Assembly: GCA_023898565.1 (NCBI GenBank)
Contig: CP060228.1
Coordinates: 776,930 to 840,929 of the forward strand
Source: Candidatus Nomurabacteria bacterium
GTDB taxonomy: Bacteria > Patescibacteriota > Minisyncoccia > Phycocordibacterales > UBA918
Length of the DNA stretch: 64,000 nt
Direction of reading: 5' to 3'
Shown: positions 23,350 through 46,881 of the stretch, one piece after another
Position numbering within the stretch: the stretch's first letter is position 1
Layout: the number at the start of each line of letters is the position of its first letter
Notes under the pieces: model-generated
Databases searched by the model: none
Told to the model about the DNA's origin: nothing
The model's input: the letters and a program-made list of their open reading frames with translations, nothing else
Position numbers and translations under genes: made by a program

Positions 23350-23350
23350 A

Positions 23351-24728: not shown

Positions 24729-24730
24729 TT

Positions 24731-28037: not shown

Positions 28038-28994
28038 ATGAATAGGGTTGTGCAAAATTTCGTGATGCTTGTTCTTTTTTTACCTGTGCTTTTTTTTAGC
28101 ATGGGTGCGCAGCATGTATTTGCTGGCTTTGGTATCACACCGCCGTATGTGCGAAATACAAGCCTAACTCGCAATTCAACGTACGAGCAGCAGATTCTTC
28201 TCGTTCGCAGTGACACGAATGTCGGGCAGATAGCTGAAATTTCTGTTGATGCTCCAGAAATTGAAAGTTGGATACAAATCGTTGAAGGTGAAGAAATTCA
28301 CATGCCCAAGGGTGCTCAAAAAGTGCCAATGACAGTGCGAGTTACAGTACCGTCTGACGCTGAATTTAAGGATTACGAGGGTGCCATTCGCATCCGTACA
28401 CTACCTGAAGATGGGAAGGTGTCACCGGGAGCTGTCAGTATTTCCCTCGGCGCACTGGTAGATATTAGTCTCTCTGTTATTGATAAACAAATCAAAGATT
28501 TTCGTGTTCGCAAAATTTCAGCGGCAGATTTAAACGAAGGACACAAAGTAGCCTGGCTCTATTTTCCGGGAAAAATTGATTTTGACATGATGATTGAGAA
28601 TACCGGTAACGTGGACATTGCACCGTCGAAAATTGAATTTAGAATTTTTGATAGAGCAGGTAAGGTGTTACTTGAAGAAACAAAAAACATCGGAAAGCTT
28701 GTAAAGGTTGCGCCGTATGGAACAGAGACAATTACCGCAGAGCTCCCGACTAGGCTTCCAGCCGGTAGTTATGTCGCTAGATACAGAATCTTCAATGGTG
28801 AGGACATTAAGCAGGAAGGAGACATTAGCTTAAATATCCTTGCGTACGGCACATTGCAGACAGCAGGTTTTGGTTTCATTGGTCTTTCTTTTGCTCACAA
28901 GATTTCAGTACTTCTTCCAATCTTCGCACTTGTTATTGCCGGTATTTACGCGTGGCAGTCACGACAAAAGGATAAAGTTCGTCGTCGCAGGTAA
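28038..28994 (+). CDS. CscA-like (DUF916/DUF3324-like) cell-surface protein with a signal peptide and a C-terminal TM anchor plus basic tail
   Basis: The signal peptide is followed by 'FGITPPYV...' and a 'DYEGAIRIRT' motif reminiscent of DUF916. The C-terminus is 'LLPIFALVIAGIYAWQSRQKDKVRRRR'. It is paralogous to the genes at 44196 and 45187. The family assignment is from memory. Confidence 0.55.
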   Translation: MNRVVQNFVMLVLFLPVLFFSMGAQHVFAGFGITPPYVRNTSLTRNSTYEQQILLVRSDTNVGQIAEISVDAPEIESWIQIVEGEEIHMPKGAQKVPMTVRVTVPSDAEFKDYEGAIRIRTLPEDGKVSPGAVSISLGALVDISLSVIDKQIKDFRVRKISAADLNEGHKVAWLYFPGKIDFDMMIENTGNVDIAPSKIEFRIFDRAGKVLLEETKNIGKLVKVAPYGTETITAELPTRLPAGSYVARYRIFNGEDIKQEGDISLNILAYGTLQTAGFGFIGLSFAHKISVLLPIFALVIAGIYAWQSRQKDKVRRRR

Positions 28995-28996
28995 GT

Positions 28997-30103
28997 ATGA
29001 AGTACCTCTTCTTTTTCTTCACCCTAAACATTCTTGTGGTGCCAACTTTTCTGCTGGCAGCAACACTCGATTACGCAACTACTACGCTAAGTGTAAGTAT
29101 TTGTGGAAACTCTATTGTGGATTCGGGCGAACAGTGCGATGTGCCTGGAGAGACTGGAGTGTACAGTCAAACAATTGCAGGTAGGCAGTGTACAGCTTCC
29201 TGCAATTTTGGTCCGTACTGTGGTGACGGTATTCTCCAGACCGTACACGGAGAAGAGTGTGATGATGGTAATAATGATAACGGTGATTTTTGCTCCGCGC
29301 TTTGTAAAATTGAGCCAGCAGGTTCTGGCGGCGGCGGTTCGTCTGGCGGCGGTTCGTCTGGCGGCGGCGGAAGCTCAAAAAGTGTTGGTGATACTTTAAT
29401 CAGCATCATCGGAAGAGCGTATCCCTCTCGTACAATAAACTTTCTTCTTGATACAGAGACCGTAGGCACGGTTCGTTCAGGCAGTGACGGACGTTTTGAA
29501 TTTACAACCGAGGCAGATCCAGGCACAGCTACGTTAGGCATCTGGGCTAATGACGATAGTGGTAACCGCTCAATCACTCTTAACAACACGTTTGATGTAA
29601 CGCAAGGCGCAATTACAAACATCAATGGTGTCATTCTGCCGCCAACCATTTCTGTGCCCAGCCAGAATGTTGATCCGGGTGCTGCGGTAACAGTGTCGGG
29701 ACAAAGTGTGCCAGGGTCAACCGTAGAACTGCATGTTGACAATAGTTCACTTATTGAAAAAGCAACGGCGGGTAGCGACGGTAAGTGGAGTATTCTTTTT
29801 GACACCTCTAAGATTTCAATAGCCGAACACACGCTGCGTGCTCGTACTATTACTGATACACCCCCACTTACTACCAATAGTAGCTTTAGTGCCTCACTGC
29901 AGCTGTTTGTTGGTGTTGAAGGTCGCGCGACCACGCCATCTGATCTTAATCGTGATGGGTTCATAAACTTGATTGACTTTTCTATTCTGATTTTCTGGTG
30001 GCAGACTGACGGCGGTGACTCAAATCCACCAGCAGATATCAATGGTAATGGGCGAGTGAGTCTGGAAGACTTTTCTATTTTACTTTTCAACTGGAGTGGC
30101 TAA
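28997..30103 (+). CDS. Secreted protein with two Myxococcus-type cysteine-rich repeats, a Gly/Ser linker, Ig-like domains and a C-terminal dockerin-like domain
   Basis: The cysteine-rich repeats read 'CGDGILQTVHGEECDDGNNDNGDFCSALC'. The linker is GSGGGGSSGGGSSGGGGSS. The dockerin-like Ca-binding repeats are 'DLNRDGFINLIDFSIL' and 'DINGNGRVSLEDFSILLFNW'. Confidence 0.7.
   Translation: MKYLFFFFTLNILVVPTFLLAATLDYATTTLSVSICGNSIVDSGEQCDVPGETGVYSQTIAGRQCTASCNFGPYCGDGILQTVHGEECDDGNNDNGDFCSALCKIEPAGSGGGGSSGGGSSGGGGSSKSVGDTLISIIGRAYPSRTINFLLDTETVGTVRSGSDGRFEFTTEADPGTATLGIWANDDSGNRSITLNNTFDVTQGAITNINGVILPPTISVPSQNVDPGAAVTVSGQSVPGSTVELHVDNSSLIEKATAGSDGKWSILFDTSKISIAEHTLRARTITDTPPLTTNSSFSASLQLFVGVEGRATTPSDLNRDGFINLIDFSILIFWWQTDGGDSNPPADINGNGRVSLEDFSILLFNWSG
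29321..29377 (+). repeat. Tandem nucleotide repeat (ggcggcggttcgtct x2 plus variants) encoding the Gly/Ser linker
   Basis: It is directly visible as 'ggcggcggcggttcgtctggcggcggttcgtctggcggcggcgg'. Confidence 0.8.
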
Positions 30104-30430
30104 CACCTGCCTTGCGGCAGGTTTTGCCGTTTTTATAAACTCATGAATGAATGTGTGAAATTATGCATTTCAGAAATAAAATTTTGTGAATAAACTAATT
30201 TTTAAAAAAACTCTTGCGGTAAAATTAAGTTGTACTTGCAAAGGAGGTAATCAATTAGCATTACTGCTTGTATCACATACGAGGGCACTTCAGCCGAGTG
30301 TTACTTTGTAGGTATGCTTACAGTGTATTTTGTTGTAGTCGGAGTGGAGACCGTACTACACGCATGGGTTTTTGCCCATCTGTTTTTACACCACAAAAAC
30401 AGGCTGTGAGTCTAATACAACGTAGAGTAT
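30104..30430 (+). promoter_or_regulatory. AT-rich upstream region of 327 nt (putative promoter plus long 5' leader) with an orphan strong Shine-Dalgarno sequence (AAGGAGGT at 30241-30248) that is not followed by a start codon
   Basis: It is very AT-rich (tttttaaaaaaa, taaaat). The SD-like element lies about 180 nt upstream of the ATG at 30431. The -10-like TAGAGT sits 3 nt before the ATG. Confidence 0.35.
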
Positions 30431-31588
30431 ATGCACAGAGCGTCCAACGCGTTCACTGTGCTCCAAGCTACCGCAGCTATCGTAGCTACAGCAATCATTT
30501 TTTGGTCGCTTGGCTTACCAACATTCCGCTTTGCGGAAGCTGCAAATGTCACGACGTTTAGCAACACCCTTTCTAGCTCTGCTCCAGCAGCAGCCGCTGA
30601 CCATACCATTGCGTTCACTACTCCAACCGGAGTGGCCAACGGAGAAACAATCACGGTTGATTTCTCAGATGGACCGTTTGTGGTTGGTTCAGTCGACTTC
30701 ACTGATATTGATGTAGCCACATCATCTGGTGAGTTCTCACTGGCAGCTGATTGTTCAGGCTCAGAAATGGCTAGCGCTGCTTTTTCAGGCACAACTCTCA
30801 CCATCACTATGTGTGCTGGTGACGGCAGCTTGATCGCAGCAAATGGAACCACAACGATTGAGATTGGTACTAATGCTACAAACCAAACTCTTGGTGATCA
30901 GCAACTAACCAATCCAGCAGCTGGTTCATACGAAATCAACCTTACTGCAGGTTCTGTTGATACAGGCGCAACACGTGTTGCAATTGTTGAAACAGTTACT
31001 GTTACCGCTTCAGTTGACACCCAGTTTACATTTACAGTAACTGGCGTTGCTGGAGGTCAAACAGTTAACGGTGAAACCACTGGCGGTACAACGACAGCAA
31101 CTACCATTCCATTTGGTCAGCTGGAAATTGATACCGCGAGTACTGCAGCACAGGATTTGGTTGTTGTGACCAACGCACGTAATGGTTTTGTTGTAACGGT
31201 AGAGGCAGATCAACAGCTTACATCGTCTAATGGTGCTGATATCGACAGCTTCCGCAACGGTAACGGAGATACTACTCCAACCGCCTGGGAAGCACCGTCA
31301 CAGACGCTTGGCGATGAAGATACATACGGTCACTGGGGTATTACATCTGATGACGACACATTGACATCAGGTCTCACCAATCCGTTCAATGTTGGTTCTG
31401 GCGGCGATCGATTCGCAGCCGTACTGACTACGCCAACAGAAGTATTTCGTCACACTGGGCCATCAAATGGTACAACACAGGGTGAAGGAACCACTCGAGT
31501 TGGTTACAAGGTCGAGGTTTCCTCACTACAGGAAGCTGCCGACGACTACACTGCTACACTGACATATGTAGCAACGCCGGTTTTCTAG
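30431..31588 (+). CDS. Secreted surface protein (385 aa), T/G/S-rich, with a C-terminal WxL-like motif 'DDYTATLTYVATPVF'. It has its own promoter region and a strong terminator, so it may be an abundant surface component
   Basis: The signal peptide reads 'AIVATAIIFWSLGLPTFRFAEA'. The C-terminus is colinear with the end of the 2,063-aa protein ('GDYTADLQYIVIPVF'). Confidence 0.65.
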   Translation: MHRASNAFTVLQATAAIVATAIIFWSLGLPTFRFAEAANVTTFSNTLSSSAPAAAADHTIAFTTPTGVANGETITVDFSDGPFVVGSVDFTDIDVATSSGEFSLAADCSGSEMASAAFSGTTLTITMCAGDGSLIAANGTTTIEIGTNATNQTLGDQQLTNPAAGSYEINLTAGSVDTGATRVAIVETVTVTASVDTQFTFTVTGVAGGQTVNGETTGGTTTATTIPFGQLEIDTASTAAQDLVVVTNARNGFVVTVEADQQLTSSNGADIDSFRNGNGDTTPTAWEAPSQTLGDEDTYGHWGITSDDDTLTSGLTNPFNVGSGGDRFAAVLTTPTEVFRHTGPSNGTTQGEGTTRVGYKVEVSSLQEAADDYTATLTYVATPVF

Positions 31589-31620
31589 TAAAATTGGCTT
31601 CAAGCTTGGAGTTAACAAAC

Positions 31621-31657
31621 AAAAAACCCTATCTCCCACCACGAGAAGGGTTTTTTG
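31621..31657 (+). terminator. Rho-independent (potentially bidirectional) terminator
   Basis: AAAAAACCCT pairs perfectly with AGGGTTTTTT around a 16-nt loop. An A-tract lies upstream and a T-tract downstream. Confidence 0.8.
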
Positions 31658-31707
31658 CTTGTGTACAGAGCGGATTATTTGTAAATGAGGTTGCTATACT
31701 GTGTGTA

Positions 31708-32778
31708 ATGAAACGAGGTACGTATTTGTTTTTTCTCGCCAGTTTTTTCTGGATGTTGTCATCAACTAACGTTTACGCGGCTTCACTATATATTGACCCG
31801 GGCACTCCAACATTACATAGCGGCGACTCGGCGACACTCGCGGTGAGACTTGATGTAGATGAAATGGCAGAGGAGTGCGTTAATGCCGTGAGTGCAGTGA
31901 TTAGCTACCCAACCAATATTGAACCAGTAGACGTTTCGATTGGCGAATCAATTTTTTCGATGTGGGTAGAACAGCCTACTATCAATCGAACGGAGCGAAC
32001 AATAACTTTCGCTGGCGGCATTCCAAATGGATATTGCGGCCGAGTAATTGGAGACCCGCGACTCAGTAATATTCTCATGAAGTTAGTTGTAATGGTGCCG
32101 GGTTTTTCAATTGGTGGTGCTGCTGATAGTAATATCGCTGAAATTTACTTTACAGACGAGAGTCTTGCGTATCTCAATGATGGACAAGGTACTGCTGTGC
32201 CGGTTGAAAGCTATCCATCAAGAATTTCAATTATCAGAAAGCCAGGTGCAGAATTACAGAACGCGTGGCAAAAAGAAGTTGATGCAGACAGGGTTTTGCC
32301 TGAAGAATTTAGCATCTCACTACAGCGTGACGAAAAGGCTTTTTCTGGAAAGTACTATATCGTCTTCAACACCTCAGACAAGCAAACTGGTATTGATCAT
32401 TATGAGGTTATTGAGGAGCCTATGAGTCAATTTGGTGCATTTCAATGGGGAAGAGCAGATGCGCCATGGATTACAGCGCGGAGTCCGTACGTACTAAAAG
32501 ACCAAAGTCTAAACAGTATTGTTAGGGTTAAGGCGGTGGACAAAGCAGGTAATGAGCGTATTGCAAATCTTCTGCCGGACGAAAGTATGCGTACGATGTC
32601 ATACTCACAAATTATAACGATTGCCGTTGTAGGAGCTTCACTCGTGTTAATGTTGCTGCTTCTTGTTGGTGGCCTGCTCTATGTTAAACGTAAGCGTCAA
32701 AAGCGAGTGAGTGAGAATGAGTTAGCTGCTACTCCAGATCAAAATGATGAGCGTAACAAGGATGAGTATGATGTATAA
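31708..32778 (+). CDS. Membrane-anchored protein with a cohesin-like domain (signal peptide, cohesin-like beta-sandwich, C-terminal TM and charged tail)
   Basis: The cohesin-like block is 'SLYIDPGTPTLHSGDSATLAVRLDVDE...VSAVISYP...'. The C-terminal TM is 'IAVVGASLVLMLLLLVGGLLYVKRKRQKR'. Confidence 0.55.
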   Translation: MKRGTYLFFLASFFWMLSSTNVYAASLYIDPGTPTLHSGDSATLAVRLDVDEMAEECVNAVSAVISYPTNIEPVDVSIGESIFSMWVEQPTINRTERTITFAGGIPNGYCGRVIGDPRLSNILMKLVVMVPGFSIGGAADSNIAEIYFTDESLAYLNDGQGTAVPVESYPSRISIIRKPGAELQNAWQKEVDADRVLPEEFSISLQRDEKAFSGKYYIVFNTSDKQTGIDHYEVIEEPMSQFGAFQWGRADAPWITARSPYVLKDQSLNSIVRVKAVDKAGNERIANLLPDESMRTMSYSQIITIAVVGASLVLMLLLLVGGLLYVKRKRQKRVSENELAATPDQNDERNKDEYDV

Positions 32779-34537
32779 AACAAATCTTATAGTCAGTTTT
32801 GCAAAAAAAGCTGCTCTTCTTCTTGGGCTTGTTTTGGCATATTTCGTATGCTTCAGTGCAACGTCCTATGCTGCAACATTGAGCCTCTCGCCAAACACCG
32901 GTGTATACCCAGTAAACAGCACTTTTTCAGTAAGTGTGAGTGTTGCGCCTGATGGAAAATCAATTAATGCCGCTGAAGGGACGCTATCGTTCAATCCGCG
33001 CGAGCTCTCAGTCGTCTCTGTGAACCGTAGCAGCTCGATTTTTAATCTATGGGTGACGGAGCCAACGTTTTCAAACAGTGCAGGAACAATATCCTTTAGC
33101 GGTGGTTCACCGGCTGGTTACTCCGGTCGAAGTGGAACCATTATGACCATTACATTTCGAGCGGTAACTGCTGGCTCACCCCGGGTAAGTTTTAAGAACG
33201 GTTCGGTGCTGGCCAACGACGGTAAAGGTACAAACATCCTAACCGCAATGAATGGTGGCAGTTATACAATTCAAGCAGCCGTTTCAACACCAGTTCCGGA
33301 AGTAATTGAATATGTGGCGCCTGCCAATACACCAGCAGCTCCGAAGGTGACTTCTAGTTCTCATTCGGATAGCACAGGCTGGTATACAAACACCAAAGCA
33401 GAGCTTGCTTGGCTCGTGCCGGAGGGAGTGACTGCGGTACGGACACTGCTCGACGCAAACCCGAGTTCAATCCCAACTAAAGTGTACGAAGAAGCCGTCT
33501 CACACATAACCGTAGATGACTTAGATGAAGGTGTGCAGTACTTCCATGTGCAGTTTAAGAACAGTGAAGGCTGGGGTAAGGTCGCACATTACCGCTTAGC
33601 AGTTGACACCGAAAAGCCTACTCGCATTGATATTTCGTTGGCGGCAGAGGCTGATTTGGCAAATCCTGTTCAGGTACTTAAAATAGACGTAAATGATGAA
33701 ACATCAGGAATTGAGAAATTTAAGATTAAGCTTGACGCAGACGACCCATTTGAAGTAACTGATTCAGTTGCCTCTGGCAGTGTGCGTTTGCCATCGTTGG
33801 AGCCGGGGTACCACACAGCAATTGTGGAGGCCTTTGATCAGGCTGGAAATAGCATCGTGGGCACGTTCTCATTTACTATCGCAGCGTTTGATCGCCCAAT
33901 TTTTACTGAATATCCAAGTGAAGTTAGCGAACAAGTTATTCCTGTTATAAAGGGTCAGACCAGACCGAATGCAGTAGTGGAGGTTTTTGTTACGAAGCTG
34001 GGGAGTGAGCCGCTATCCTATGAGGTGACTGCAAACGACAGAGGGGAGTTTACCTTTATTCCAGAAGGAAGATTTAGTCTTGGTGTGTATGAGCTTACGG
34101 CACGCGCCACAGACACTTTTGGGGCACAAAGTGAACTCTCAGATGTGGTGCGAATCGCTGTTCAACAGCCGGGCTTTGTTCGGATTGGTTCATTACTGGT
34201 AAGTGCTTTGTCAGTTTTGATACCGCTACTTGTCTTAATTGCCGTGCTGTTGCTTGGTGTGTGGTACTCGTTTATCTACGCACGCCGTTTCCGAAAAGCT
34301 GTTCGCGTAGAATCCATCGAAGCATTGCAAATCTTGAGGCGCGAGTTTGCTGACCTGCAAACTACCTTGATGCAGCAGTCACGTGTTATGGCCGAGTCGC
34401 GTCGAACAAAAAAACTAACAATCGCTGAAGAGTCAATGGTTGAGCTTTTTGCCGCAGCACTTCGCAATTCACAACAGAAAGTAGAGAGGGAAATTGTTGA
34501 TATCGCGGACCTTACAAATAAGTCAGATAAGAAATAA
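32768..34537 (+). CDS. Membrane-anchored protein with an N-terminal cohesin-like domain, Ig/FN3-like domains, a C-terminal TM and a cytoplasmic tail of about 100 aa
   Basis: The cohesin-like block is 'TLSLSPNTGVYPVNSTFSVSVSVAPDGKSINAAEGTLSFNPRELSVVSV'. The TM is 'LIPLLVLIAVLLLGVWY'. Its start overlaps the previous stop (ATGTATAA). Confidence 0.55.
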   Translation: MMYKTNLIVSFAKKAALLLGLVLAYFVCFSATSYAATLSLSPNTGVYPVNSTFSVSVSVAPDGKSINAAEGTLSFNPRELSVVSVNRSSSIFNLWVTEPTFSNSAGTISFSGGSPAGYSGRSGTIMTITFRAVTAGSPRVSFKNGSVLANDGKGTNILTAMNGGSYTIQAAVSTPVPEVIEYVAPANTPAAPKVTSSSHSDSTGWYTNTKAELAWLVPEGVTAVRTLLDANPSSIPTKVYEEAVSHITVDDLDEGVQYFHVQFKNSEGWGKVAHYRLAVDTEKPTRIDISLAAEADLANPVQVLKIDVNDETSGIEKFKIKLDADDPFEVTDSVASGSVRLPSLEPGYHTAIVEAFDQAGNSIVGTFSFTIAAFDRPIFTEYPSEVSEQVIPVIKGQTRPNAVVEVFVTKLGSEPLSYEVTANDRGEFTFIPEGRFSLGVYELTARATDTFGAQSELSDVVRIAVQQPGFVRIGSLLVSALSVLIPLLVLIAVLLLGVWYSFIYARRFRKAVRVESIEALQILRREFADLQTTLMQQSRVMAESRRTKKLTIAEESMVELFAAALRNSQQKVEREIVDIADLTNKSDKK

Positions 34538-35226
34538 TGAATATGAAAACAGCAATCAAAAATTGGTTTACCGTAAAGACTGTAGGTGCATGTTTGCTTG
34601 GAGTCTTGGTAATTTACTTTGCAACCACCGCGATCGTCGACGTTCGCCTTAGTGCTTATGAGCAGACGTCGCGGTTACAAATTGCAGATCAACAGACTGT
34701 TTTGCTTGCTATTGCAGAAGCTACTGGTAGAAACGGGGTAGACGTTGCAGGTGAGTCAATTATTCATGACTGTGCTGTAAACGAAAGGACGGAGTTTGAC
34801 AGTTTGCTCAGCCGCTTAAATGTTGGATTATCTCAAACTGAACTGATAACTTTAGAACGTCTATTCGGTCGTTGTGGTTCATTTTTTTCTGACCGAAAGT
34901 CTTTGATGTCCTCACGACTTACTCGAGAAATTGAAATATACGAAACGTACGTTACACAACTAAGTATTCTTTTAGGGGACAATCTAAGTGGAGCCTTTTT
35001 AGTTCAAAAATGGAAGGCGCTTGCGGCTGAGGAGGAGCGACAAAGCGAACTTTTTGGGAGACTGGTTGGCGCACAAGACAAAATAATCGCAACGTTGCTT
35101 TCTGGTAAGAGTGCAAATTCAGATGAAATCCAGGAAATTTTACAAGAAGCAAAAGAAATTCAAGAAACACTCCTGGTAGCAAATAAGCAAGCCTCAACCC
35201 TCCGTGCTGAGCTGGTGCCGCTCTAA
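34537..35226 (+). CDS. N-terminally TM-anchored hypothetical protein (229 aa), predicted helical/coiled
   Basis: The ATG overlaps the previous TAA (TAATG). The TM is 'VGACLLGVLVIYFATTAIV'. No recognisable domain was found. Confidence 0.5.
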   Translation: MNMKTAIKNWFTVKTVGACLLGVLVIYFATTAIVDVRLSAYEQTSRLQIADQQTVLLAIAEATGRNGVDVAGESIIHDCAVNERTEFDSLLSRLNVGLSQTELITLERLFGRCGSFFSDRKSLMSSRLTREIEIYETYVTQLSILLGDNLSGAFLVQKWKALAAEEERQSELFGRLVGAQDKIIATLLSGKSANSDEIQEILQEAKEIQETLLVANKQASTLRAELVPL

Positions 35227-35234
35227 ACTGGAGT

Positions 35235-35978
35235 ATGAACGCATTTATTCAGAAGTATCTTCTGCAGAGAAAAAGAAAAAGTACGAGAACGGTACGCTTC
35301 TTGTTCTCTGCAGTTTTCACCGCTGCGATGTTGCTTGGTGCAGCAGCAATCACGAGTACTTCTGATGTTTCGTATATTCGGCTCGCTACTTCTGCTGCCA
35401 CGGTTGAGTCAGGCCAACGTTTTTCAATTGATGTATACGCCTATGCTCACGTGCCTGTAAACGCCGTTGATATAACTCTTCACTTTGATCCAGATGCTGT
35501 CACCGTCCTTTCGGTTGACCGAGGTCAATCTGTGTTAACTATTTGGACTGAAGAGCCGGTGATTAAAAACGGCACAGTATCATTAAGCGGCGGTACGTTT
35601 AGGCGCGGGTTTGTTAAAGAGCACAAGATTGCAACTCTCGACATGGTGGCTAAAGAGACTGGTCAGAGCACGTTTAGCGTCTCAGACGTCATGCTTTTGG
35701 CGGGTGACGGCGCCGGTAGCCCTGTTTCAACAACTGAGACGGATAGCTCGTCAGTAAGCTTGTATGTGTATGACGAGAATACTTCTCCAGAAAACATAGG
35801 CGTAGACGTTAAAATTAAAGTGGTTTCCGACATTGATGGTGATGGAAAGGTTACATTGACTGACATAAGCGCATTTATGGCCGCTTGGCATAATAAAAAC
35901 ACACTTTATGACTTCAATAACGATGGCAAAATGTCCTTCCGAGACTTTTCGATCATACTGGCAAATTTCTTTTTCTAG
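35235..35978 (+). CDS. Protein combining a cohesin-like domain and a C-terminal dockerin-like domain
   Basis: The cohesin-like block is 'RFSIDVYAYAHVPVNAVDITLHFDPDAVTVLSV'. The dockerin repeats are 'DIDGDGKVTLTDISAFMAAW' and 'DFNNDGKMSFRDFSIILANF'. Confidence 0.6.
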   Translation: MNAFIQKYLLQRKRKSTRTVRFLFSAVFTAAMLLGAAAITSTSDVSYIRLATSAATVESGQRFSIDVYAYAHVPVNAVDITLHFDPDAVTVLSVDRGQSVLTIWTEEPVIKNGTVSLSGGTFRRGFVKEHKIATLDMVAKETGQSTFSVSDVMLLAGDGAGSPVSTTETDSSSVSLYVYDENTSPENIGVDVKIKVVSDIDGDGKVTLTDISAFMAAWHNKNTLYDFNNDGKMSFRDFSIILANFFF

Positions 35979-36001
35979 TGTGTAAGTCAAAATATGTTGA
36001 T

Positions 36002-36029
36002 AGCAGGACTCACAATTGTGAGTCCTGCT
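36002..36029 (+). terminator. Strong 12-bp hairpin (AGCAGGACTCAC-AATT-GTGAGTCCTGCT) with a weak T-tract, likely a terminator
   Basis: The perfect palindrome lies immediately after the stop at 35978. Confidence 0.5.
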
Positions 36030-36095
36030 TGGTATCATATGTATGTGGTATAGCCGCCACATCGGTACAACGTAGAGCGTGTTCTCAATACAAGA

Positions 36096-37949: not shown

Positions 37950-37991
37950 CATGGTTTTTGCTTAATTTATCTTGTAAAATATAGATAATTT

Positions 37992-40900
37992 ATGTTGTGG
38001 AGGAAACGCTTTTGGAGTCGGTGTATTGTTCCTGTGGCTGGATTGCTGCTGGCCTTAGTGTGGGTAGAAGCAATTCGCTTCGCTGTTCCACTTGACCGGC
38101 TGATTTCGGTATTTACCCTCGTCCAGGCGGCAGAGGTTACTATCGACAGTGCCGTAAGCACTACCCCCACTGAGCATCATATTTTGGGATCACAGACAGT
38201 TTTTGTGAGTGATCAGGTTGGCTATAAGTTTTATACTAACAGCAATGGTACTTGTGTGTACAACAAAACAAGCAATGGTGGCACGAGCTGGGGCACAGAA
38301 GTTACCTTCGATAGCCAGACCGACTGTTGGGGAGTAGTGGTTTGGTACGATCAGTGGACTGCCGGCGACACTGGGAATTACATCCATATCATCAGCGCAG
38401 ATAGCAGCAGCGACGTTGTTTGGTACAACCGTCTAGACACCACATCTGATACGCTGTTGCTCGGCTCAACTCCAGTAAATGTCTCATCAAACTCTGGTCA
38501 AACCGGCACACTTGCAACGGCTGCTAACAACCCAAGTATCACAAAGGCTACTAATGGCGTACTGTACATTGCCATTGCAGACAACACTGATAGTTATGTC
38601 GTTGAATGTTCTGCGAGTTGTGGCTCAGCAACCAGTTGGACAGAAACTGGCACAAACCCCATGGACCTGCAGCCAGACAAGTCACTCATCTTGCCGCTTG
38701 CAGACGGAGATATAATTCTCATTCAACGAGATCGGTCCGCAGATGATATGCGCAGCAAAATTTGGGATGATAGCGCCGGTACCTGGTCGGGCACTTGGAC
38801 GATAATCGATGCGAACGCTATTGAAAACAGCACCTACGATCCTTCTTTTGCCGCTATGGCAGATCCTGATTCGGGAGATATTTTTTTAGTGTATATAGAC
38901 AACGGGACAACGGGCGCGATTGGTGGAGGCAATGACAACATCAGAACGGCCAAATATTCAGGGGGTTCGTGGACCAATACTGCCAACGTGGTTACCAATA
39001 GCGCAATGGGTCTGACAAAACTCTCAATGGCGATGGATGGAAATAATTCTGAGATTTATGTTGCCTTTTCTGCGCGAGTCACTCCAGGCACGGCAAACAC
39101 AGCAAATATCTATTGGGCAACATCGACCGCTGCCATGAGTTCATGGGGGTCTGTGCAAGGCCCAGTCAACAGCACACCAGACGATATGTACGGAGTTGAT
39201 CTCAACAACTACAACAAGGAGCGCATTTATGTTTCATGGTATCAGCCAGCAATCGATGACATCTTAGGTGACACAATCGCGAACATTTCACCGATTACCG
39301 TTGTTAGTTCATTTGGTACTCAGAGTAGTGAAGTCAGGGCAAGTAGTACGGATACGTATATTGGTGGAGGCTTTGCAATCGTTGAAAATTCAGCTAGTCG
39401 AAATGTTACCGACATCATTATTTCGGAGAACGGCAGTGTTGATGCTGCAAATGCTCTAGACAACATTAAGCTCTACTACGACCTCGACACCAGCGCGCCG
39501 TACGATTGTGCGAGTGAATCATACAGCGGTACTGAAAGTCAGTTTGGTAGTACGGACACCAATGGCTTTTCCGGAGCAGATGGCGTTTCTGCTTTTACTG
39601 GCTCGGTCGGTATTTCTCCGACGACGGCAATGTGTGTGTATGTTGTCATGGACGTGCTTAAAGTAGCGGTAGACGGCAGTACACTGGATGTTGAGATTTC
39701 CAATCCAGCCACTGACGTGCTTGTGAGTGGAAGCGTGACGGCCGTGCCTCCGACTGCTCAGCAAATCGGCGGCACTACAAATATTGTTGACTCAGACTTA
39801 ACACAAACTCATTATCATTGGCGTAATGACGATAATATTGAACTGCTGGCAACTTCTCGAACGGGTGGTGCAGAGGACATTCCGCTGACAGCGCTGCAAA
39901 AAGAAACACCAGTACGTCTGCGTTTTGGGGTCTCCAACGAAGGGTCAACCACGACACTTCCAACAACATTGCGACTCGAATATGCAACCAATCCCTCAGT
40001 CTGCTCAGCTGCAACGGGGTGGACAGATATTGATGTGGTGGATGATGCTTGGAACTTGTATGATTCGACATACGTGGTAAACGGTACGGATACTACAGAT
40101 ATAAGCGTCGCCTCGGGAGGCGTAGACAATGAAAATAGTGTTTTCCTAACTCCAAACGGCGGACAGCTCGACACTTCCTCTGAAACAGGTTCGCTTGCTT
40201 TCTTGCCAACAAATTGGACGGAGGTTGAATATGCAATTGTTGCCTCAAGCTCTGCACAAGAGGGTGATGGCTACTGTTTTAGACTAACCAATGCAGGTGA
40301 ACCATTACCGCAATACAATACCTATCCATCGGCCGTCATTGCGGCAGATGTGCGCGTGCGTGCTACAAGTACCCAGATAGCTGCAGCCGACATACCAGCG
40401 GATAACGTGTACTTGGGTGGCGCATTTACTATTACGGAAAACAGCTCGGCGAGAACGGTGTCTGGAATCACAATCACTGAAAATGGCACTGTTGATGCTT
40501 CTGCTGGTCTGGCGAATATTCGTTTGTATTATGATCTCGACACCAGCGCGCCGTACGATTGTGCGAGTGAATCATACAGCGGTACTGAATTTCAGTATGG
40601 GGCAACCTCAAGCGCATTTAGTGCGGCAAATGGCACGTCCACTTTTAGTGATGCTGTTGGTATTACCACCACGCAAACGATGTGTGTGTACGTTGTGGCG
40701 GATGTTACAGAAACCGCTCAAAATGGAGAGAATATAAACATTTTACTTGCTTCACCCGCAACCGACATTGTGGTGTCAGGCGGGGGCACGGTCTCTCCAT
40801 CAACGCCGCTTGATATAAATGGCTCAACAACATTGGCGGGAGCAATCGTCACACAAACTGGATATCATTGGCGCTATGATGACGGTGACGAAACCTCCAG

Positions 40901-43900
40901 TGGTGCCACGTCGGCAACAGGGGGGGCAGAAAACACGGCGCTGGCTGATCTTGAGAACGGTAGCGCAATCAGGTTGCGTATGCAAATTTCTAATGAGGGA
41001 TCGACGACCTCTGTGCCTCGTCAATATGGGCTGGAATACGGAGTTAAAAGCACCACTTGTGATGCGATTAGTGTTTGGACGGACGTGGATGGCGGTGGGC
41101 TCATTTGGGCAATGAGTGATTCAAGCAATTTGACGCACGGCGCTGACACTACAGATGTTTCTGTTGGTTCAGGAGGTGTCAGTAACCCCGGTGGTAAAAC
41201 ATTTTTAACACCAAATGGAGGGGTGCGTGATATCTCATCATTTTCAGCTACTACCACACTTACGAATAGCCAATTTACAGAATTTGAGTACAGCATCACA
41301 ACGACAGAGGACACGCCATACGAGACTGATTTCTGTTTTCGTTTAACGCAAAATGGATCACCGCTATTGGCTTACACTCAGTACGCAGAACTCAATATTG
41401 AACCAAAGCGCGATTTTAAGATACAGCAGGGAGAATCAATTGTAAGTGGAACCGGTCTCACACTAACTGCGGGAGTCGACTACGAAGCACCAAGTTCTGC
41501 TTCTACTGCTTTTGTTCGGATTACAAATTCACACATGACTGGCGCAGGGCGCGATGCAGCAGGCGGTGCACAAAATGCAGACGACTACGGTGCGTACATC
41601 TCAAATCCAGCAAATCTTACAACGAGTTTTACCATCTCACGCGATACTGACTCAATCAATAATACCTATGTCGCTTGGGAAATTATCGAGTATGTCGGCG
41701 CGGCCGGCGGAGACAATGAAATTATTGTGAGAGACCAAAGCACGCTGAGTCTCGGTACTACCGCAAATACTGCCACTGGTTCCGCGGTGCCAACGGTCGC
41801 TGACGATGCGGATGTTGTGGTGTTCATTACTGGGCAGATGCATCATACCGGTAATCGAACTGAGACGTATTCCCACCAGTTCACATCAACGTGGAGCGCA
41901 GGTTCTGGTGAGCCAACGTTTGAGCGCGGAGATAATGGTGGTAATGCGGCAGAAGTGAGCTATGCGGTAGTAGAGTTTACTGGCCTCAATTGGAAAGTGC
42001 AGCGCACTGAGCACAATTACGCTGCCGCCGGAGTGACAGAAACTGAACCAATTACTGCAGTAAATAGTCTTGGACGAACATTTATACATGCACAAAAGCG
42101 ATACACAGCAGTTAGCGGCATTGGTAATGTGGGGCACGAAGTCTGGCTCTCGAGTATTGGAGCGGTTTCGTTTGAGGTCAACAATCTGGCAACAATCACA
42201 GGGGTGACACACACCTCCGTTGCCTGGATTATTGAAAATACTCAAACCGGAACTGGTGCCATGTCTGTGCAGCGTAGTTCTGGTAATACTACGGGTGGAA
42301 CGGAGCCTGTTCTTATTTCACTACCTATTTCTACGAGTCTCAACTCTGTAAATAATGCTTCTATCTTTGTCACGACAGACGTTAATCAAACGGGAGACAC
42401 GATGCCCCGACCAATTGCCGGTGCCTTCATCACATCAACTTCTACCTACCAGCTTTGGCGCAGTGAAGCCTCTGGCGGTGGTGTTTTGAGCTATCGTACG
42501 GAGATTGTGCAATGGCCGGCAGCTGACCTCGCCATTCGGCAAAACTATTACCGTCTGTATGCGGATAATGATGACCTTACCCCCTCCGATCCGTGGCCAA
42601 TTGGTGCGTACGACTTGGGTGAAAATGCTCCCATTACTGCTGTCGATGAGCCGCCGGCGGATGGTGGACATATTCGAGTACGTATGACGTTGCAAATTGC
42701 AAACGCAACACTGCCAAGTGGGTTCTTGACTACGAAACTACAATACGGTGAGCTAGAAACGACTTGTTCTGCTGTTTCTGTCTGGAGCGATGTGGGGGCA
42801 GCTGGAAGTGGTGCTATCTGGAGAGGATACGATGCTGCAGGAATAGTTGATGGCGCTTCTTTGTCTGGTAATCCACCGACTGGTGGTGATTTGCTTATCT
42901 CAGTGGCTGATCGAGCGGGTCGCTACACTGAAAGTAACCCTAGCTCTGCAAACCAGTATGCAACTTTGCGAACTGAGGATATTGAATATGATTGGCACAT
43001 TGAACACAACGGGGCTCCACAGCGTACAACGTATTGTTTTCGCATGGTTAAGGCGGATGATACTGAACTAGACGGATATTTTTATTACCCACAAATTCGC
43101 ACTGAAGGGTATAGTCCTGCAACGCAGAATTGGCGTTGGTATGATGACGAGACAAACGAAACCCCTTCGCTCGCACTTGCTGCCGAAAATGTTACGCCAA
43201 CCGGTCTGCCTGACCAGAATGAAATAAAACTTCGCATCAGCTTGACTGAGCTTAAGAATCTGTCGCAACTAAATGCCCGCTTCAAGTTGCAATATTCTGA
43301 GTCGCCAAACTTTGGCATTGCGTATGACTTGTCTGCGACCACATCGTGTACAGCCAGCTCCTTGTGGTGTTACGCTGACGGTGCAGGGGTCGATACTGCA
43401 CTCATCACTACAAGCGTGCTTAGTGACAGTGACGGCTGTGTCGCAGGGGTTGGTGATGGTTGTGGTACACATAACGAAGCAGGATACGCAGTAAATGGTT
43501 TTACCCATTATGGCAACAGAACGATTGAAAATGAGTTTACGATTAAATATAGCAGCGCCACGCGCAACTTCGGTAAAGTGTATTACTTTAGGTTATACGA
43601 CGTCACCAACGATGAGCCTGTCGCAGTGAATAATGGCTACACGATTCCCTCAATCGGAGTTGATCCAACATCACTCACGTTATCGGTTAACGGTGTCAAC
43701 AGCGGAACGTCTATCGCAGGAATCACAACTGACGTGACGACTACCGCAACGGGCGTGGATTTCGGCTCTTTGCCAGTCGGGAGCTCAGTAGCTGCGGCAC
43801 AGGATATTGATGTGAGCACCAATGCGACGGAAGGGTATCAACTACTTGTATTCAATACACAAGGATTATTAAATTCATACGGTGATGCAATCAATCCAAT

Positions 43901-44183
43901 AGCAAGTACTAATGCGGCCCCGCAGGGTTGGACAGCGGCTTGTGATGGTTCGACGGGTTGCTTTGGTTATCACACTACTGACGCCACTTTATGGGGAGGC
44001 TCAACCAGGTTTGCTCCGATAGACTCCTACGCACCATTAAGTACAAGTCCAGAAGAGATTATGTATAACTCAGCCTCGAGTAGCGAAAGTCACTCAATTA
44101 TTTATCGTGTGAGCGTTACTCCCGATCAACCAGCGGGCGACTATACGGCTGATTTGCAGTACATTGTGATTCCAGTCTTTTAA
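37992..44183 (+). CDS. Large surface protein (2,063 aa) with an N-terminal BNR/Asp-box beta-propeller, four copies of the 'WRxDDG...YCFR' domain, an internal tandem duplication of about 1 kb and a C-terminal WxL-like domain
   Basis: The N-terminus has a signal/TM. BNR motifs are 'SNGGTSWG' and 'SGGSWTN'. The WR...CFR repeats are 'YHWRNDDN...GYCFRLT', 'YHWRYDDGDE...DFCFRLT', '...TYCFRMV' and 'WRWYDDE...YYFRLY'. The C-terminus is 'GDYTADLQYIVIPVF'. Confidence 0.85.
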   Translation: MLWRKRFWSRCIVPVAGLLLALVWVEAIRFAVPLDRLISVFTLVQAAEVTIDSAVSTTPTEHHILGSQTVFVSDQVGYKFYTNSNGTCVYNKTSNGGTSWGTEVTFDSQTDCWGVVVWYDQWTAGDTGNYIHIISADSSSDVVWYNRLDTTSDTLLLGSTPVNVSSNSGQTGTLATAANNPSITKATNGVLYIAIADNTDSYVVECSASCGSATSWTETGTNPMDLQPDKSLILPLADGDIILIQRDRSADDMRSKIWDDSAGTWSGTWTIIDANAIENSTYDPSFAAMADPDSGDIFLVYIDNGTTGAIGGGNDNIRTAKYSGGSWTNTANVVTNSAMGLTKLSMAMDGNNSEIYVAFSARVTPGTANTANIYWATSTAAMSSWGSVQGPVNSTPDDMYGVDLNNYNKERIYVSWYQPAIDDILGDTIANISPITVVSSFGTQSSEVRASSTDTYIGGGFAIVENSASRNVTDIIISENGSVDAANALDNIKLYYDLDTSAPYDCASESYSGTESQFGSTDTNGFSGADGVSAFTGSVGISPTTAMCVYVVMDVLKVAVDGSTLDVEISNPATDVLVSGSVTAVPPTAQQIGGTTNIVDSDLTQTHYHWRNDDNIELLATSRTGGAEDIPLTALQKETPVRLRFGVSNEGSTTTLPTTLRLEYATNPSVCSAATGWTDIDVVDDAWNLYDSTYVVNGTDTTDISVASGGVDNENSVFLTPNGGQLDTSSETGSLAFLPTNWTEVEYAIVASSSAQEGDGYCFRLTNAGEPLPQYNTYPSAVIAADVRVRATSTQIAAADIPADNVYLGGAFTITENSSARTVSGITITENGTVDASAGLANIRLYYDLDTSAPYDCASESYSGTEFQYGATSSAFSAANGTSTFSDAVGITTTQTMCVYVVADVTETAQNGENINILLASPATDIVVSGGGTVSPSTPLDINGSTTLAGAIVTQTGYHWRYDDGDETSSGATSATGGAENTALADLENGSAIRLRMQISNEGSTTSVPRQYGLEYGVKSTTCDAISVWTDVDGGGLIWAMSDSSNLTHGADTTDVSVGSGGVSNPGGKTFLTPNGGVRDISSFSATTTLTNSQFTEFEYSITTTEDTPYETDFCFRLTQNGSPLLAYTQYAELNIEPKRDFKIQQGESIVSGTGLTLTAGVDYEAPSSASTAFVRITNSHMTGAGRDAAGGAQNADDYGAYISNPANLTTSFTISRDTDSINNTYVAWEIIEYVGAAGGDNEIIVRDQSTLSLGTTANTATGSAVPTVADDADVVVFITGQMHHTGNRTETYSHQFTSTWSAGSGEPTFERGDNGGNAAEVSYAVVEFTGLNWKVQRTEHNYAAAGVTETEPITAVNSLGRTFIHAQKRYTAVSGIGNVGHEVWLSSIGAVSFEVNNLATITGVTHTSVAWIIENTQTGTGAMSVQRSSGNTTGGTEPVLISLPISTSLNSVNNASIFVTTDVNQTGDTMPRPIAGAFITSTSTYQLWRSEASGGGVLSYRTEIVQWPAADLAIRQNYYRLYADNDDLTPSDPWPIGAYDLGENAPITAVDEPPADGGHIRVRMTLQIANATLPSGFLTTKLQYGELETTCSAVSVWSDVGAAGSGAIWRGYDAAGIVDGASLSGNPPTGGDLLISVADRAGRYTESNPSSANQYATLRTEDIEYDWHIEHNGAPQRTTYCFRMVKADDTELDGYFYYPQIRTEGYSPATQNWRWYDDETNETPSLALAAENVTPTGLPDQNEIKLRISLTELKNLSQLNARFKLQYSESPNFGIAYDLSATTSCTASSLWCYADGAGVDTALITTSVLSDSDGCVAGVGDGCGTHNEAGYAVNGFTHYGNRTIENEFTIKYSSATRNFGKVYYFRLYDVTNDEPVAVNNGYTIPSIGVDPTSLTLSVNGVNSGTSIAGITTDVTTTATGVDFGSLPVGSSVAAAQDIDVSTNATEGYQLLVFNTQGLLNSYGDAINPIASTNAAPQGWTAACDGSTGCFGYHTTDATLWGGSTRFAPIDSYAPLSTSPEEIMYNSASSSESHSIIYRVSVTPDQPAGDYTADLQYIVIPVF
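39363..41400 (+). repeat. Intragenic tandem duplication (2 units of about 1.05 kb) in the 2,063-aa gene, including a 54-bp identical stretch at 39483-39536 and 40536-40589
   Basis: 'ctcgacaccagcgcgccgtacgattgtgcgagtgaatcatacagcggtactgaa' occurs twice. The flanking peptides 'GGFAIVENSASRNVTDIIISENGSVDAANALDNIKLYYDLDTSAPYDCASESYSGTE' and 'GGAFTITENSSARTVSGITITENGTVDASAGLANIRLYYDLDTSAPYDCASESYSGTE' are colinear. Confidence 0.85.
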
Positions 44184-44195
44184 TGAATAAATGGT

Positions 44196-45212
44196 ATGAT
44201 TAAGACTAAGATGAAAAGAGGGTTCACTCAATTTCTAAATGCCATTACGATTGCGTTGGTCATATTTCCTTTAGCATCACAAGCATCTGATGTGACTGTT
44301 CGTCCATTTCTTATAGACCGAACGCTTTTACCTCGAGACACAGCAACGGAAACAATCACTATTAAAAGCGATTACGATATTCGAAAAGCTGTTCTTTTTG
44401 CAACGGTCAATGAGATTACTCTAGACTCTGAGGGGGAAATTAAAGAGTTTGTTTCTCCAGTAATGACCGATCGAACCAACACTATTACTAGTTGGATCGA
44501 GGTGTCCCGTGGTCGAATTGAAGTCCCGCCGGGTGAGACTGTTGAAGTTCCACTGACCGTACGAGTACATCCACAAGCTCAGCCAGGTGAGTACACGGCA
44601 TTTATTGGGTTGGTTGAAGCGGCAAATCGAGACAAGGCGGAAGCCATTGCTCTGGCTGGTGAAGCGAAGGGTGTATTACTTAAAGTGACAGTGAGTGATC
44701 AGCGTAAGGAAACAATGAGCATTACCAGCTTTATGATTAATCGATTCGTGACTGGTGAAGCTCGGAAGAAAATTGAGATTAGTGTTGAAAATAAGGGTGA
44801 TATCACCTCTGCACCAGCCGGAGAAATTATATTTTACGATTCTCGGGGGAGAGAAGTTGATTCTGTTACGGTAAAGGGAGAAGCTATCAATCCTGGTGAA
44901 ATGGGCACGCTTACTAGTGTTGTTCCTCTTTCTGAAAAATTGGGTCGCTTCAAGGCGAATGTGACCTTGCATTATGGTGACACACAGCAAGCCTCATTGT
45001 TTGATACCACATACTTTTATCTTGTGCCGATGTATCCACTGTTAATGCTGTTTGGCATTGTACTACTCATTTCAATTGCGATTGCTTTGATGTTTAGACG
45101 CGCATTCTTTAGTCACGAATCACCTGATGATTACCATGAAGTAACCATGTATGTTCGTGACGGACACGAACCTAACCCGCAAGATCATGACATCGACCTT
45201 AAACAAAACTAG
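44196..45212 (+). CDS. CscA-like (DUF916/DUF3324-like) cell-surface protein with a C-terminal TM anchor
   Basis: The signal peptide is followed by 'DVTVRPFLIDRT...'. The motif 'QPGEYTAFIGLVEA' is present. The C-terminal TM is 'LLMLFGIVLLISIAIALMFRR'. Confidence 0.55.
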   Translation: MIKTKMKRGFTQFLNAITIALVIFPLASQASDVTVRPFLIDRTLLPRDTATETITIKSDYDIRKAVLFATVNEITLDSEGEIKEFVSPVMTDRTNTITSWIEVSRGRIEVPPGETVEVPLTVRVHPQAQPGEYTAFIGLVEAANRDKAEAIALAGEAKGVLLKVTVSDQRKETMSITSFMINRFVTGEARKKIEISVENKGDITSAPAGEIIFYDSRGREVDSVTVKGEAINPGEMGTLTSVVPLSEKLGRFKANVTLHYGDTQQASLFDTTYFYLVPMYPLLMLFGIVLLISIAIALMFRRAFFSHESPDDYHEVTMYVRDGHEPNPQDHDIDLKQN

Positions 45213-46881
45213 TTCACTGCTAGCCTCGCTGCTATTCTTTTGTGGCATCACGTTTTTTCCTTTTGCGTCAGAAGCGGCGGATGGCTCAGTTACCTTAAGT
45301 GTGTCTCCAACACTCTATGAGATGAGTGCAGATCCAATGCAGGTCTGGACCAGCAATGTGCGAGTCATAAATCCAAATGGTTTTGATTTAGATGTATATG
45401 CACGGGTGGTAAATTTTGAAGCGCAAGATGAAACCGGTCGAGCTAGCTTCTTACCGGTTCTGGACGCGGCAACGACTGAAAACACTCTGGCAGAATGGGT
45501 CCATTTAGATCAGGATTCGTACACTATTCCAGCGGGCCAAACGGTTGAGATTCCGTTTCAAATCTCAATTCCAAAAAGTGCTCCACCCGGAGGTCACTTC
45601 GGAGCGATAATGATTGGAACTCGACCCCTTAGCAATGCGAGTGGTCAAAGCTCAGTAGAAACGTCACAAGTAGTAACGTCGCTCATTTTTTTGCGAGTTA
45701 CTGGTGACGTGGTTGAGAATGGCAGCATTCGTGAGTTCCGTAGCAGTAAGCGCCTCGCTGAAAAACCAGAAATGTCTTTTGAACTACGCTTTGAGAATAC
45801 CGGTAACGTGCACGTATTGCCGCAGGGTGAAATACGCATATTTAATATGTGGGGCCATGAGCGAGGTGTTATACCAGTAAATCGACAAACCATGTTTGGT
45901 AATGTGCTTCCAAATAGTGTTCGAAAGTATAGCTTTAGCTGGTCTGGTGAGTGGTCCTTGGCTGACATTGGAAGATACACTGCCGTTGCCACTTTGGCCT
46001 ACGGTGAAGATGGTCGAAAATTTACTGATGCAGAAACCGCTTTCTGGGTATTGCCTTGGAAAGCTGTTGGCTCTGTGTTGTTGCTTATCTGCAGTTTCTT
46101 CTATTTCTTGACCTGGGCAATTAAACTATACGTTAGAAAAATGCTTAAACTAGCAGGAGTCACTTCCGTAATGTCAGAGCAGCCTGCAGAAATGCACCAG
46201 CAGACAAAGGCGCGCAAACAGGTCGCAGAAGCTGGCAATACTGATACTCGGCATATTCTAACTAACGGGAAGGCGAAGAGGCTTTCTATCGTCGCACCGT
46301 TTGAGGAAGGCATGCTTGACCTTAGAAGTCGTTTCAAAAATTCGGTGACGTGGCGCGAGTACACAAAACAGGCATGGTTTTTTATTACTGCGTACAAAAC
46401 ATTCTTTATTGCTGCTGTGCTGTTTGCTGTCTTTGTTTCACTCGCTTTCTGGTTTTTGGATTCAGTCAAAGAGGAGAGAGGGTTTAATATCACTATCGAT
46501 GGGATTGATCAAAACATCACACTTTCGTCAGAGCAAATGCAATATGAAAACATGCGTAAGGAGTCGCCTGCAACAACTCAAGTAAAAATGAAAGGTACAC
46601 CATCAATAACCGTGATCAATCGTAGTGGTGTGGCAGGATTAGCGGCTGAGTGGAGACTGCGACTGGAACAAGAAGGATATGCGGTGGGGGAACTGAGAAA
46701 TGATCTTGATGCTGCGGAAAGCAAGACGGTCATTGTGTATGAGAGTAGCTATACAGATGAAGCATTAGTCTTGAGTGAACTTCTCCATGGAGCACTGCTT
46801 TCAGCAAACACAAACAGTGATGCAAAGGCAGAACCGTTAATTATTTATATCGGCAATGATTTGCAAAATGCGGTAGAATAA
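45187..46881 (+). CDS. CscA-like (DUF916-like) surface domain fused through two TM helices to a C-terminal LytR_C-like domain
   Basis: The DUF916-like motif is 'PPGGHFGAIMIGTRP'. The TMs are 'VLLLICSFFYFLTWAI' and 'FFIAAVLFAVFVSLAFWFL'. The C-terminal block 'ITVINRSGVAGLAAEWRLRLEQEGYAVGELRN...TVIVY' resembles LytR_C. The start at 45187 (MTSTLNK) overlaps the upstream gene by 26 nt. Confidence 0.55.
   Translation: MTSTLNKTSSLLASLLFFCGITFFPFASEAADGSVTLSVSPTLYEMSADPMQVWTSNVRVINPNGFDLDVYARVVNFEAQDETGRASFLPVLDAATTENTLAEWVHLDQDSYTIPAGQTVEIPFQISIPKSAPPGGHFGAIMIGTRPLSNASGQSSVETSQVVTSLIFLRVTGDVVENGSIREFRSSKRLAEKPEMSFELRFENTGNVHVLPQGEIRIFNMWGHERGVIPVNRQTMFGNVLPNSVRKYSFSWSGEWSLADIGRYTAVATLAYGEDGRKFTDAETAFWVLPWKAVGSVLLLICSFFYFLTWAIKLYVRKMLKLAGVTSVMSEQPAEMHQQTKARKQVAEAGNTDTRHILTNGKAKRLSIVAPFEEGMLDLRSRFKNSVTWREYTKQAWFFITAYKTFFIAAVLFAVFVSLAFWFLDSVKEERGFNITIDGIDQNITLSSEQMQYENMRKESPATTQVKMKGTPSITVINRSGVAGLAAEWRLRLEQEGYAVGELRNDLDAAESKTVIVYESSYTDEALVLSELLHGALLSANTNSDAKAEPLIIYIGNDLQNAVE

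Follow-up and report, generated by a model that had tools for sequence, protein, structure and literature searches.

The 64,000-nucleotide stretch analysed here (the window; contig CP060228.1 of the Candidatus Nomurabacteria assembly GCA_023898565.1) carries a surface-protein locus in which three paralogous membrane-anchored proteins, termed A, B and C, are encoded together with a pilin-like protein of 385 amino acids (aa) and two giant proteins. With slightly better than even probability, the locus specifies a Paceibacteria variant of the Pam-type, usher-less donor-strand surface fibre, in which the chaperones are membrane-anchored homologs of WxLIP. The host belongs to the Paceibacteria/Parcubacteria within the candidate phyla radiation (CPR), and paralog B is 100% identical to KC902_00195, which is annotated as Candidatus Kaiserbacteria. 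An initial annotation of the same DNA had proposed a Csc-type cell-surface complex of CscA-like and WxL-like proteins. This was partly right, and a Pam-type fibre is most likely the better description than a classical Csc/WxL complex.

The paralogs A (318 aa, 28038-28994), B (338 aa, 44196-45212) and C (564 aa, 45187-46881) are all encoded on the forward strand. The start of C at 45187 corresponds to Met13 of the longest open reading frame and agrees with the C orthologs. By sequence comparison the three are true paralogs, far above chance: BLASTP aligned B with C at 6e-17 over 332 aa, A with C at 8e-7, and A with B at 9e-4. The B-family and C-family profiles aligned with an hhalign probability of 99.6% (E 1.7e-23, 310 columns), and A was matched by the family hidden Markov model (HMM) at 2.6e-58. 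A profile search of 1.84 billion representatives, whose best 150 listed matches were close relatives only, assigned 14,887 clusters at 50% identity to the chaperone superfamily (E<=1e-3).

Each paralog consists of a signal peptide, two beta-sandwich domains and a transmembrane (TM) helix, as had been noted initially, and the fold of the two domains is PapD-like. The AlphaFold2 model of B (38-sequence alignment, predicted local distance difference test (pLDDT) 83) comprises a signal helix, beta-sandwiches at 33-166 and 174-276, and a TM helix at 279-306. The strand motif with an aromatic residue and glycine was likewise found in the paralog sequences (PGEY.AFIG / PGGHFGAIMIG / DYEGAIRIR). While the initial annotation had assigned a basic C-terminal tail to all three proteins, such a tail occurs in A only. 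B ends in a conserved cytoplasmic tail of 32 aa, which is acidic/His-rich and nearly invariant across the B family. C has the same type of ectodomain and TM helix (TM1, at 305-328 in C) and then runs through a cytoplasmic loop into a second TM helix (409-440), beyond which lies an extracellular LytR_C domain (PF13399, E 2.3e-10). The LytR_C domain (window 46600-46860) is extracellular by prediction and was present in all 42 of 42 orthologs examined. The near-invariant tail of the B family (window 45112-45209) reads VTMYVRDGHDPNPxDHDIDLK, and the cytoplasmic loop of C (window about 46270-46330) holds the conserved motif APIEEGILDLR. As [IL]DL[KR] is common to both, it hints at a shared cytoplasmic partner of B and C. 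Such a partner would be unusual if the two were simple extracytoplasmic chaperones.

Identity within the paralog ectodomains amounted to 53-80% across the families and peaked in one hairpin. In B, the hairpin at 80-100 (GEIKEFVSPVMTDRTNTITSWIE) is the most conserved stretch of the protein with a mean column identity of 0.93, and nowhere else in the ectodomain is the model less confident, which together would fit an interface that becomes ordered upon binding. A pattern of this kind is typical of protein-protein interfaces and atypical of host-facing adhesins. It therefore speaks against the paralogs being generic membrane adhesins of the Ig-like kind, which would attach directly to the surface of a host or prey cell, with none of the neighbouring genes encoding a partner. 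Adhesins commonly carry two Ig-like domains on a TM stalk, and weak matches to CARDB, NPCBM_assoc, and fn3_5 were obtained. However, the variable surface-exposed regions expected of such adhesins were not seen and the proteins are homologous to WxLIP, and this explanation was considered very improbable.

The CscA-like identity proposed initially was borne out in both domains. A combined profile of A, B and C aligned with seven proteins annotated as 'DUF916 and DUF3324 domain-containing', taken from genuine WxL clusters of Enterococcus, Bacillus, and Lactiplantibacillus plasmids, with an hhalign probability of 96.4% (E 1.1e-9, 255 columns). Against the PDB, the profile of A plus the B/C families matched EfmWxLIP1 of E. 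faecium (9i25_C / 9i1y_A) with an E value of 2.5e-5. The alignment ran in one collinear stretch over both domains and was the sole significant PDB match of the chaperone profile. This makes the three paralogs distant homologs of WxLIP/CscA of the Firmicutes.

At the level of single Pfam models the result was divided. PF06030 (DUF916) was matched at E<=0.01 by 35 of 42 C orthologs (best E 2.3e-9), one of which NCBI already labels 'DUF916 domain-containing protein', and by 1 of 38 members of the B family. In the Pfam scan of the window proteins, C alone matched PF06030 (E 9.6e-4), with 19.6 bits below the gathering score of 27.3, while A and B remained unmatched. PF11797 (DUF3324) was matched neither by A, B or C at E<=1 nor by 80 orthologs of the B and C families at E<=0.01. 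Despite the silence of PF11797, profile-profile as well as profile-sequence comparisons aligned the second domain with the DUF3324 portion of real WxLIPs.

The layout of WxLIP/CscA, with a signal peptide, two tandem Ig-like domains, and a C-terminal TM helix in about 320-380 aa, is found in A and B at their respective lengths, while C holds the shared core plus an extension of 250 aa. Apart from the borderline and missing Pfam matches, the locus differs from WxLIP/CscA clusters in its host, a CPR bacterium instead of a Firmicute, and in the presence of three paralogs in one locus, of which C is extended by a second TM helix and LytR_C. The partners carry no recognisable WxL domains, there is no LPXTG CscD-like protein, and the NQIDKxxxYFDLK motif is not conserved as such. 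Two observations were made on WxL plasmids. On the B. cereus plasmid NZ_CP053953.1 (locus L090, 263280-273972), a genuine WxL/DUF916 cluster is directly preceded by the gene for a CpaF/VirB11-family ATPase and by small hypothetical genes, so that a WxL cluster is associated there with a secretion or pilus ATPase. Plasmid CP069367.1, deposited as Klebsiella pneumoniae, encodes at 101785-102477 an unannotated protein with 74% identity to E. faecium WxLIP1, and is probably mis-assigned or Gram-positive-derived.

The 385-aa pilin-like protein (30431-31588, forward strand) consists of a signal peptide, an N-terminal beta-sandwich (about aa 39-185), a conserved linker strand (VTVTASVDTQFTFTV, 186-205), and a C-terminal Pam-pilin-like domain (206-385). 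Its AlphaFold2 monomer (pLDDT 83) is predicted to form beta domains at 43-185 and 199-383, with residues 186-198 of the linker as coil of lower pLDDT. Conservation is highest in two stretches of the protein, the C-terminal strand (DDYTATLTYVATPVF, 0.94) and the linker (VTASVDTQFTFTV, 0.89), and the same two were picked independently as the most conserved peptides in the search for related loci. The family counts more than 1699 homologs at 63-80% identity, and such a large size and tight constraint suit a polymerising subunit. All 12 of 12 C-terminal domain sequences matched the NCBIfam model NF058581 (CPR_Pam_pilin_C) along its entire length, with a best E of 4.2e-9, and 22 of 37 full-length orthologs matched it as well. 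No match, and no Pam or WxL chain, was found for the 385-aa protein or its C-terminal domain in a PDB copy searched without 25PZ and 25QA. The linker segment TVTVTASVDT (window 30986-31015) is near-identical to NITVTASVDP in the dscCfaE structure 2hb0, which we take to be the fused CfaB donor strand of that construct; the resemblance is statistically insignificant.

The same type of C-terminal domain is found in the last ~180 aa (nucleotides 43638-44180) of a giant surface protein of 2063 aa, which is encoded directly upstream of B and C (37992-44183, forward strand). It shares 36% identity with the domain of the 385-aa protein, was recovered by iterative HMM search at 9e-32, and is among the 12 matches to NF058581. 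The 2063-aa protein is a candidate tip adhesin.

The pairing of chaperone-like and pilin genes was evaluated across genomes by gathering related loci with the pilin alignment and scanning their open reading frames with HMMs of the chaperone and pilin families. The alignment recovered 228 confirmed relatives among GTDB species genomes, and 80 of the 228 loci, all of these 80 from Patescibacteria, were retrieved. After 12 of the 80 were left out for too little flanking sequence, a chaperone-like gene was found beside the pilin gene in 68 of 68 loci, and the co-localisation expected initially was confirmed. If 'lineage-novel' is taken to mean rare, the term does not apply to the system, given the 228 pilin relatives and the 14,887 chaperone clusters. 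In 51 loci, an A-type chaperone-like gene lies 1.2-5.0 kb upstream of the pilin gene, as in the window, with an ortholog of a 627-aa protein farther upstream. In the other 17, which represent a second operon type, the chaperone-like gene lies immediately downstream of a second pilin paralog. In loci of this second type (L060, L061, L063, L068-L071, L075, and L079), a protein of ~620-660 aa downstream of the pilin paralog shares the pilin N-terminal domain and linker and has a different C-terminal part, which would make it a candidate base or terminator subunit.

The order giant-B-C-redoxin...TGT-UvrB is kept in Nomurabacteria, and the locus is therefore regarded as core and as vertically inherited. 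Such vertical conservation among housekeeping genes would also be expected of an envelope-integrity or cell-wall module, in which the paralogs, C above all, maintain the wall and the neighbouring surface proteins form a general 'surface island'. The LytR_C domain of C fits this view, as do the weak matches that some family members gave with Cei, an envelope-integrity model (best 7.5e-4). However, A and B share the ectodomain and lack LytR_C, and the strict linkage to the pilin in 68 of 68 loci includes immediate adjacency in the second operon type. Fold and sequence also point to WxLIP and PapD-type subunit binders, and a wall module was rated as unlikely.

The remaining partner proteins end in a C-terminal domain of a second type. 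The 627-aa protein (26058-27941, forward strand), directly upstream of A, has an N-terminal TM/signal anchor followed by this domain (nucleotides 27369-27938), and its orthologs are conserved upstream of A-type genes. According to alignments, the domain is common to the 627-aa protein and the 7250-aa giant protein (21-21773, forward strand; domain at nucleotides 21201-21770), which also matches DUF2341. The open reading frame of the 7250-aa protein begins with TTG 20 nucleotides from the window edge and holds no recognisable signal peptide or TM segment. The second-type domain spans ~190 aa with the motifs I.YG, N.GN.GLD, YWGIxVP, and G.NTFTA, is conserved in many Paceibacteria, and did not match any Pfam, NCBIfam, Pam, or WxL model.

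The main rival to the fibre is a static anchoring complex of the Csc/WxL (WxLIP) type, in which the anchored WxLIP-like proteins would hold the proteins with C-terminal domains (the 385-aa protein and the giant adhesins) at the cell surface through non-covalent strand complementation and no polymerisation would take place. The robust WxLIP homology agrees with it. In Firmicutes clusters, one WxLIP is accompanied by two WxL proteins, one small and one large, and here the small 385-aa protein and the large 2063-aa protein share their C-terminal domain in the same manner. Moreover, the motifs FG, NG[WF]xLxV, and Y.TTLT[WY] were collinear between the pilin C-terminal domain and WxL at a permissive hhalign setting. 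The score was, however, non-significant and no better than that of the unrelated second-type domain, and 'WxL-like' is therefore a lead and not a result.

The WxL-like partners of the initial annotation were not recovered by the other comparisons. PF13731 (WxL) had no match in any neighbour or in the ortholog families of the neighbours. The partner C-terminal domains aligned with twelve real WxL domains, fetched from Firmicutes plasmids, with a non-significant hhalign probability of 0.6% (E 0.09), and instead matched the Pam pilin model below its cut-off. A static complex would also leave the strongly conserved interdomain linker strand without a role, and neither an LPXTG CscD-like gene nor sugar-utilisation genes are present. 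It was regarded as a possible but rather doubtful explanation.

The closest described counterpart is the Pam pilus, whose filaments were solved from the Saccharimonadia bacterium M. amalyticus (Troman et al., bioRxiv 10.64898/2026.03.03.709456). In the pilins PamA and PamB (PDB 25PZ, 25QA), a single linker strand connects an N-terminal beta-sandwich to an Ig-like C-terminal domain, which is open and takes up the linker of the following subunit, and the linker and C-terminal binding site are their most conserved parts. The operon encodes the FimC/PapD-like chaperones PamC (WP_260763277.1) and PamD (WP_260763284.1), each with a C-terminal TM helix (10.64898/2026.03.03.709456). Neither WxL nor DUF916 is mentioned in the preprint (10.64898/2026.03.03.709456). 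The locus shares with Pam its CPR host, TM-anchored PapD/FimC-like chaperones clustered with a pilin, the absence of an usher, and the layout of the 385-aa protein (beta-sandwich, linker, and C-terminal domain), including linker and C-terminal site as the most conserved parts. In contrast to Pam, the class is Paceibacteria/Parcubacteria instead of Saccharimonadia or Microgenomatia, the pilin scores below the NCBIfam cut-off, and the pilin C-terminal domain is also carried by the giant 2063-aa protein. One chaperone is fused to LytR_C, and cohesin-dockerin proteins and a MacB-type ATP-binding cassette (ABC) transporter are embedded in the cluster.

Several points weigh against a Pam-type fibre. 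The 385-aa protein scored 17.9 bits against NF058581 at full length and 22.9 bits (7.5e-5) with the C-terminal domain alone, which is below the curated cut-off of 55 bits, so that NCBI's rule does not count it as a member. A, B and C are likened to PamC and PamD by described architecture and not by sequence, and none of them matched an NCBIfam Pam chaperone model. No clear PamT-like or PamR-like component was recognised in the locus, and the second-type domain showed no detectable relation to the pilin C-terminal domain (hhalign probability 1%). Pam homologs were surveyed mainly in Saccharimonadia and Microgenomatia, and Parcubacteria are unmentioned (10.64898/2026.03.03.709456). The system, with its putative strand exchange, is known here from genes and monomer models.

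From the features described, we infer strand complementation, polymerisation, and chaperone-subunit pairing in the following form. The 385-aa protein would be the polymerising subunit, donating its linker strand to a neighbour and offering its incomplete Ig-like C-terminal domain as acceptor, and the 2063-aa protein could join as adhesin at the tip via the same type of acceptor domain. The PapD-fold two-domain proteins A, B and C would be held in the cytoplasmic membrane by their C-terminal helix. After Sec export, they would cap the open C-terminal domain of a subunit with a strand, in B probably the hairpin at 80-100, and then pass the subunit to the growing fibre. A would serve the neighbouring 385-aa and 627-aa proteins, and B and C the adjacent 2063-aa protein. 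The LytR_C domain of C, outside the membrane, possibly ties the base of the fibre to the wall.

Such a fibre would differ from chaperone-usher pili in several respects. The chaperones have no sequence similarity to those of the PapD/FimC, CfaA, and CsuC systems, and no chaperone-usher chaperone appeared at E<=10 in the PDB search. Chaperone-usher pili use a soluble periplasmic chaperone and an outer-membrane usher, whereas the putative chaperones here are TM-anchored, an outer membrane is absent, and no usher-like match was found among the cluster proteins in Pfam and NCBIfam scans. The donor strand would be the interdomain linker and not an N-terminal extension as in chaperone-usher pili.

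In the whole stretch from 21 to 47954, every gene lies on the forward strand and composition is uniform. The order begins with the 7250-aa giant, an FN3 protein, a MacB/Lol-type ABC transporter, the 627-aa protein, paralog A, and a dockerin protein. It proceeds through the 385-aa protein, two TM-anchored cohesin proteins, a 229-aa protein, and a cohesin-dockerin adaptor to a TolB-like 617-aa protein, the 2063-aa giant, B, and C, which are followed by housekeeping genes (redoxin, TGT). An origin as a mobile island was rejected on account of the uniform composition and the conserved synteny with TGT and UvrB in Nomurabacteria. No glycoside hydrolase or sugar transporter is encoded in the cluster, and a role in polysaccharide utilisation, the first proposal for csc clusters, was rejected on this ground. 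The MacB/LolCDE-type transporter (23325-25945, forward strand) was identified by NCBIfam matches and comprises an ATPase (23325-24728), which has a C-terminal extension of ~210 aa, and an FtsX-like permease (24731-25945); it is embedded within the surface-protein cluster.

Cohesin and dockerin modules as well as the giant proteins of 2063 and 7250 aa, both mentioned in the initial annotation, were confirmed in the locus. Between A and the pilin gene, a secreted protein of 368 aa (28997-30103, forward strand) carries Cys-rich repeats, Ig-like domains, and a C-terminal dockerin (Pfam Dockerin_1 9.5e-7, Big_6, and DUF4215). Downstream of the pilin gene follow two TM-anchored cohesin-type proteins (31594-34537, forward strand) with 394 aa (31594-32778) and 597 aa (32744-34537). 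Both have TM segments at the C-terminus; the 597-aa protein matched Pfam Cohesin (1.1e-6), and the N-terminal domain of the 394-aa protein is homologous to it (1e-11). A 247-aa adaptor (35235-35978, forward strand) combines cohesin (Pfam Cohesin 1.8e-4) and dockerin (Dockerin_1 3e-5). The full set thus comprises two anchored cohesins, one adaptor, and a dockerin protein whose Cys-rich repeats are of the myxo type. Its genes are interspersed with those for the pilin and the chaperones, and it may represent a second, independent assembly principle in the locus.

A consensus scan placed a terminator-like hairpin followed by a promoter-like site at 30114-30182 (forward strand), which is weak evidence. 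The hairpin lies directly 3' of the dockerin gene, and the AT-rich promoter-like site and a leader of ~250 nucleotides lead up to the pilin gene (30114-30430). These features suggest that the pilin gene is a separate, possibly strong transcription unit.

The locus also bears on the relation of Pam pili to WxL clusters. In the AlphaFold2 prediction for WxLIP, a DUF916 hairpin that is otherwise disordered takes on strand form and closes a gap in the WxL sandwich (PMC10599100), which, as modelled, would be donor-strand complementation in all but name. Because the anchored component here is WxLIP-homologous and PapD-folded, and the subunit domain matches the Pam pilin model with collinear WxL-like motifs, it is conceivable, though only tentatively proposed, that Firmicutes WxL/WxLIP (Csc) clusters and CPR Pam pili both descend from a single ancient donor-strand system of chaperones and subunits in single-membrane bacteria. 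The Paceibacteria proteins would then be the sequence bridge between them. If a common origin is true, WxLIP would be a membrane-anchored assembly chaperone or platform and not a host-membrane-inserting adhesin, and WxL proteins would be pilin-derived subunits. The sequence tie to WxLIP/CscA suggests that the poorly understood WxL clusters of enterococci, listeriae, and lactobacilli rely on strand complementation in the way that chaperone-usher and Pam pili do.

Of all uncultured bacteria, the Parcubacteria/Paceibacteria are among the most abundant, and we know of no established means by which they attach to hosts or surfaces. The locus is conserved and syntenic in dozens of species-level genomes and provides a concrete candidate fibre for this purpose, with the 385-aa protein as subunit, giant proteins as tip adhesins, and three anchored chaperones. 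If the fibre reading is true, the Pam pilus would extend beyond Saccharimonadia and Microgenomatia.

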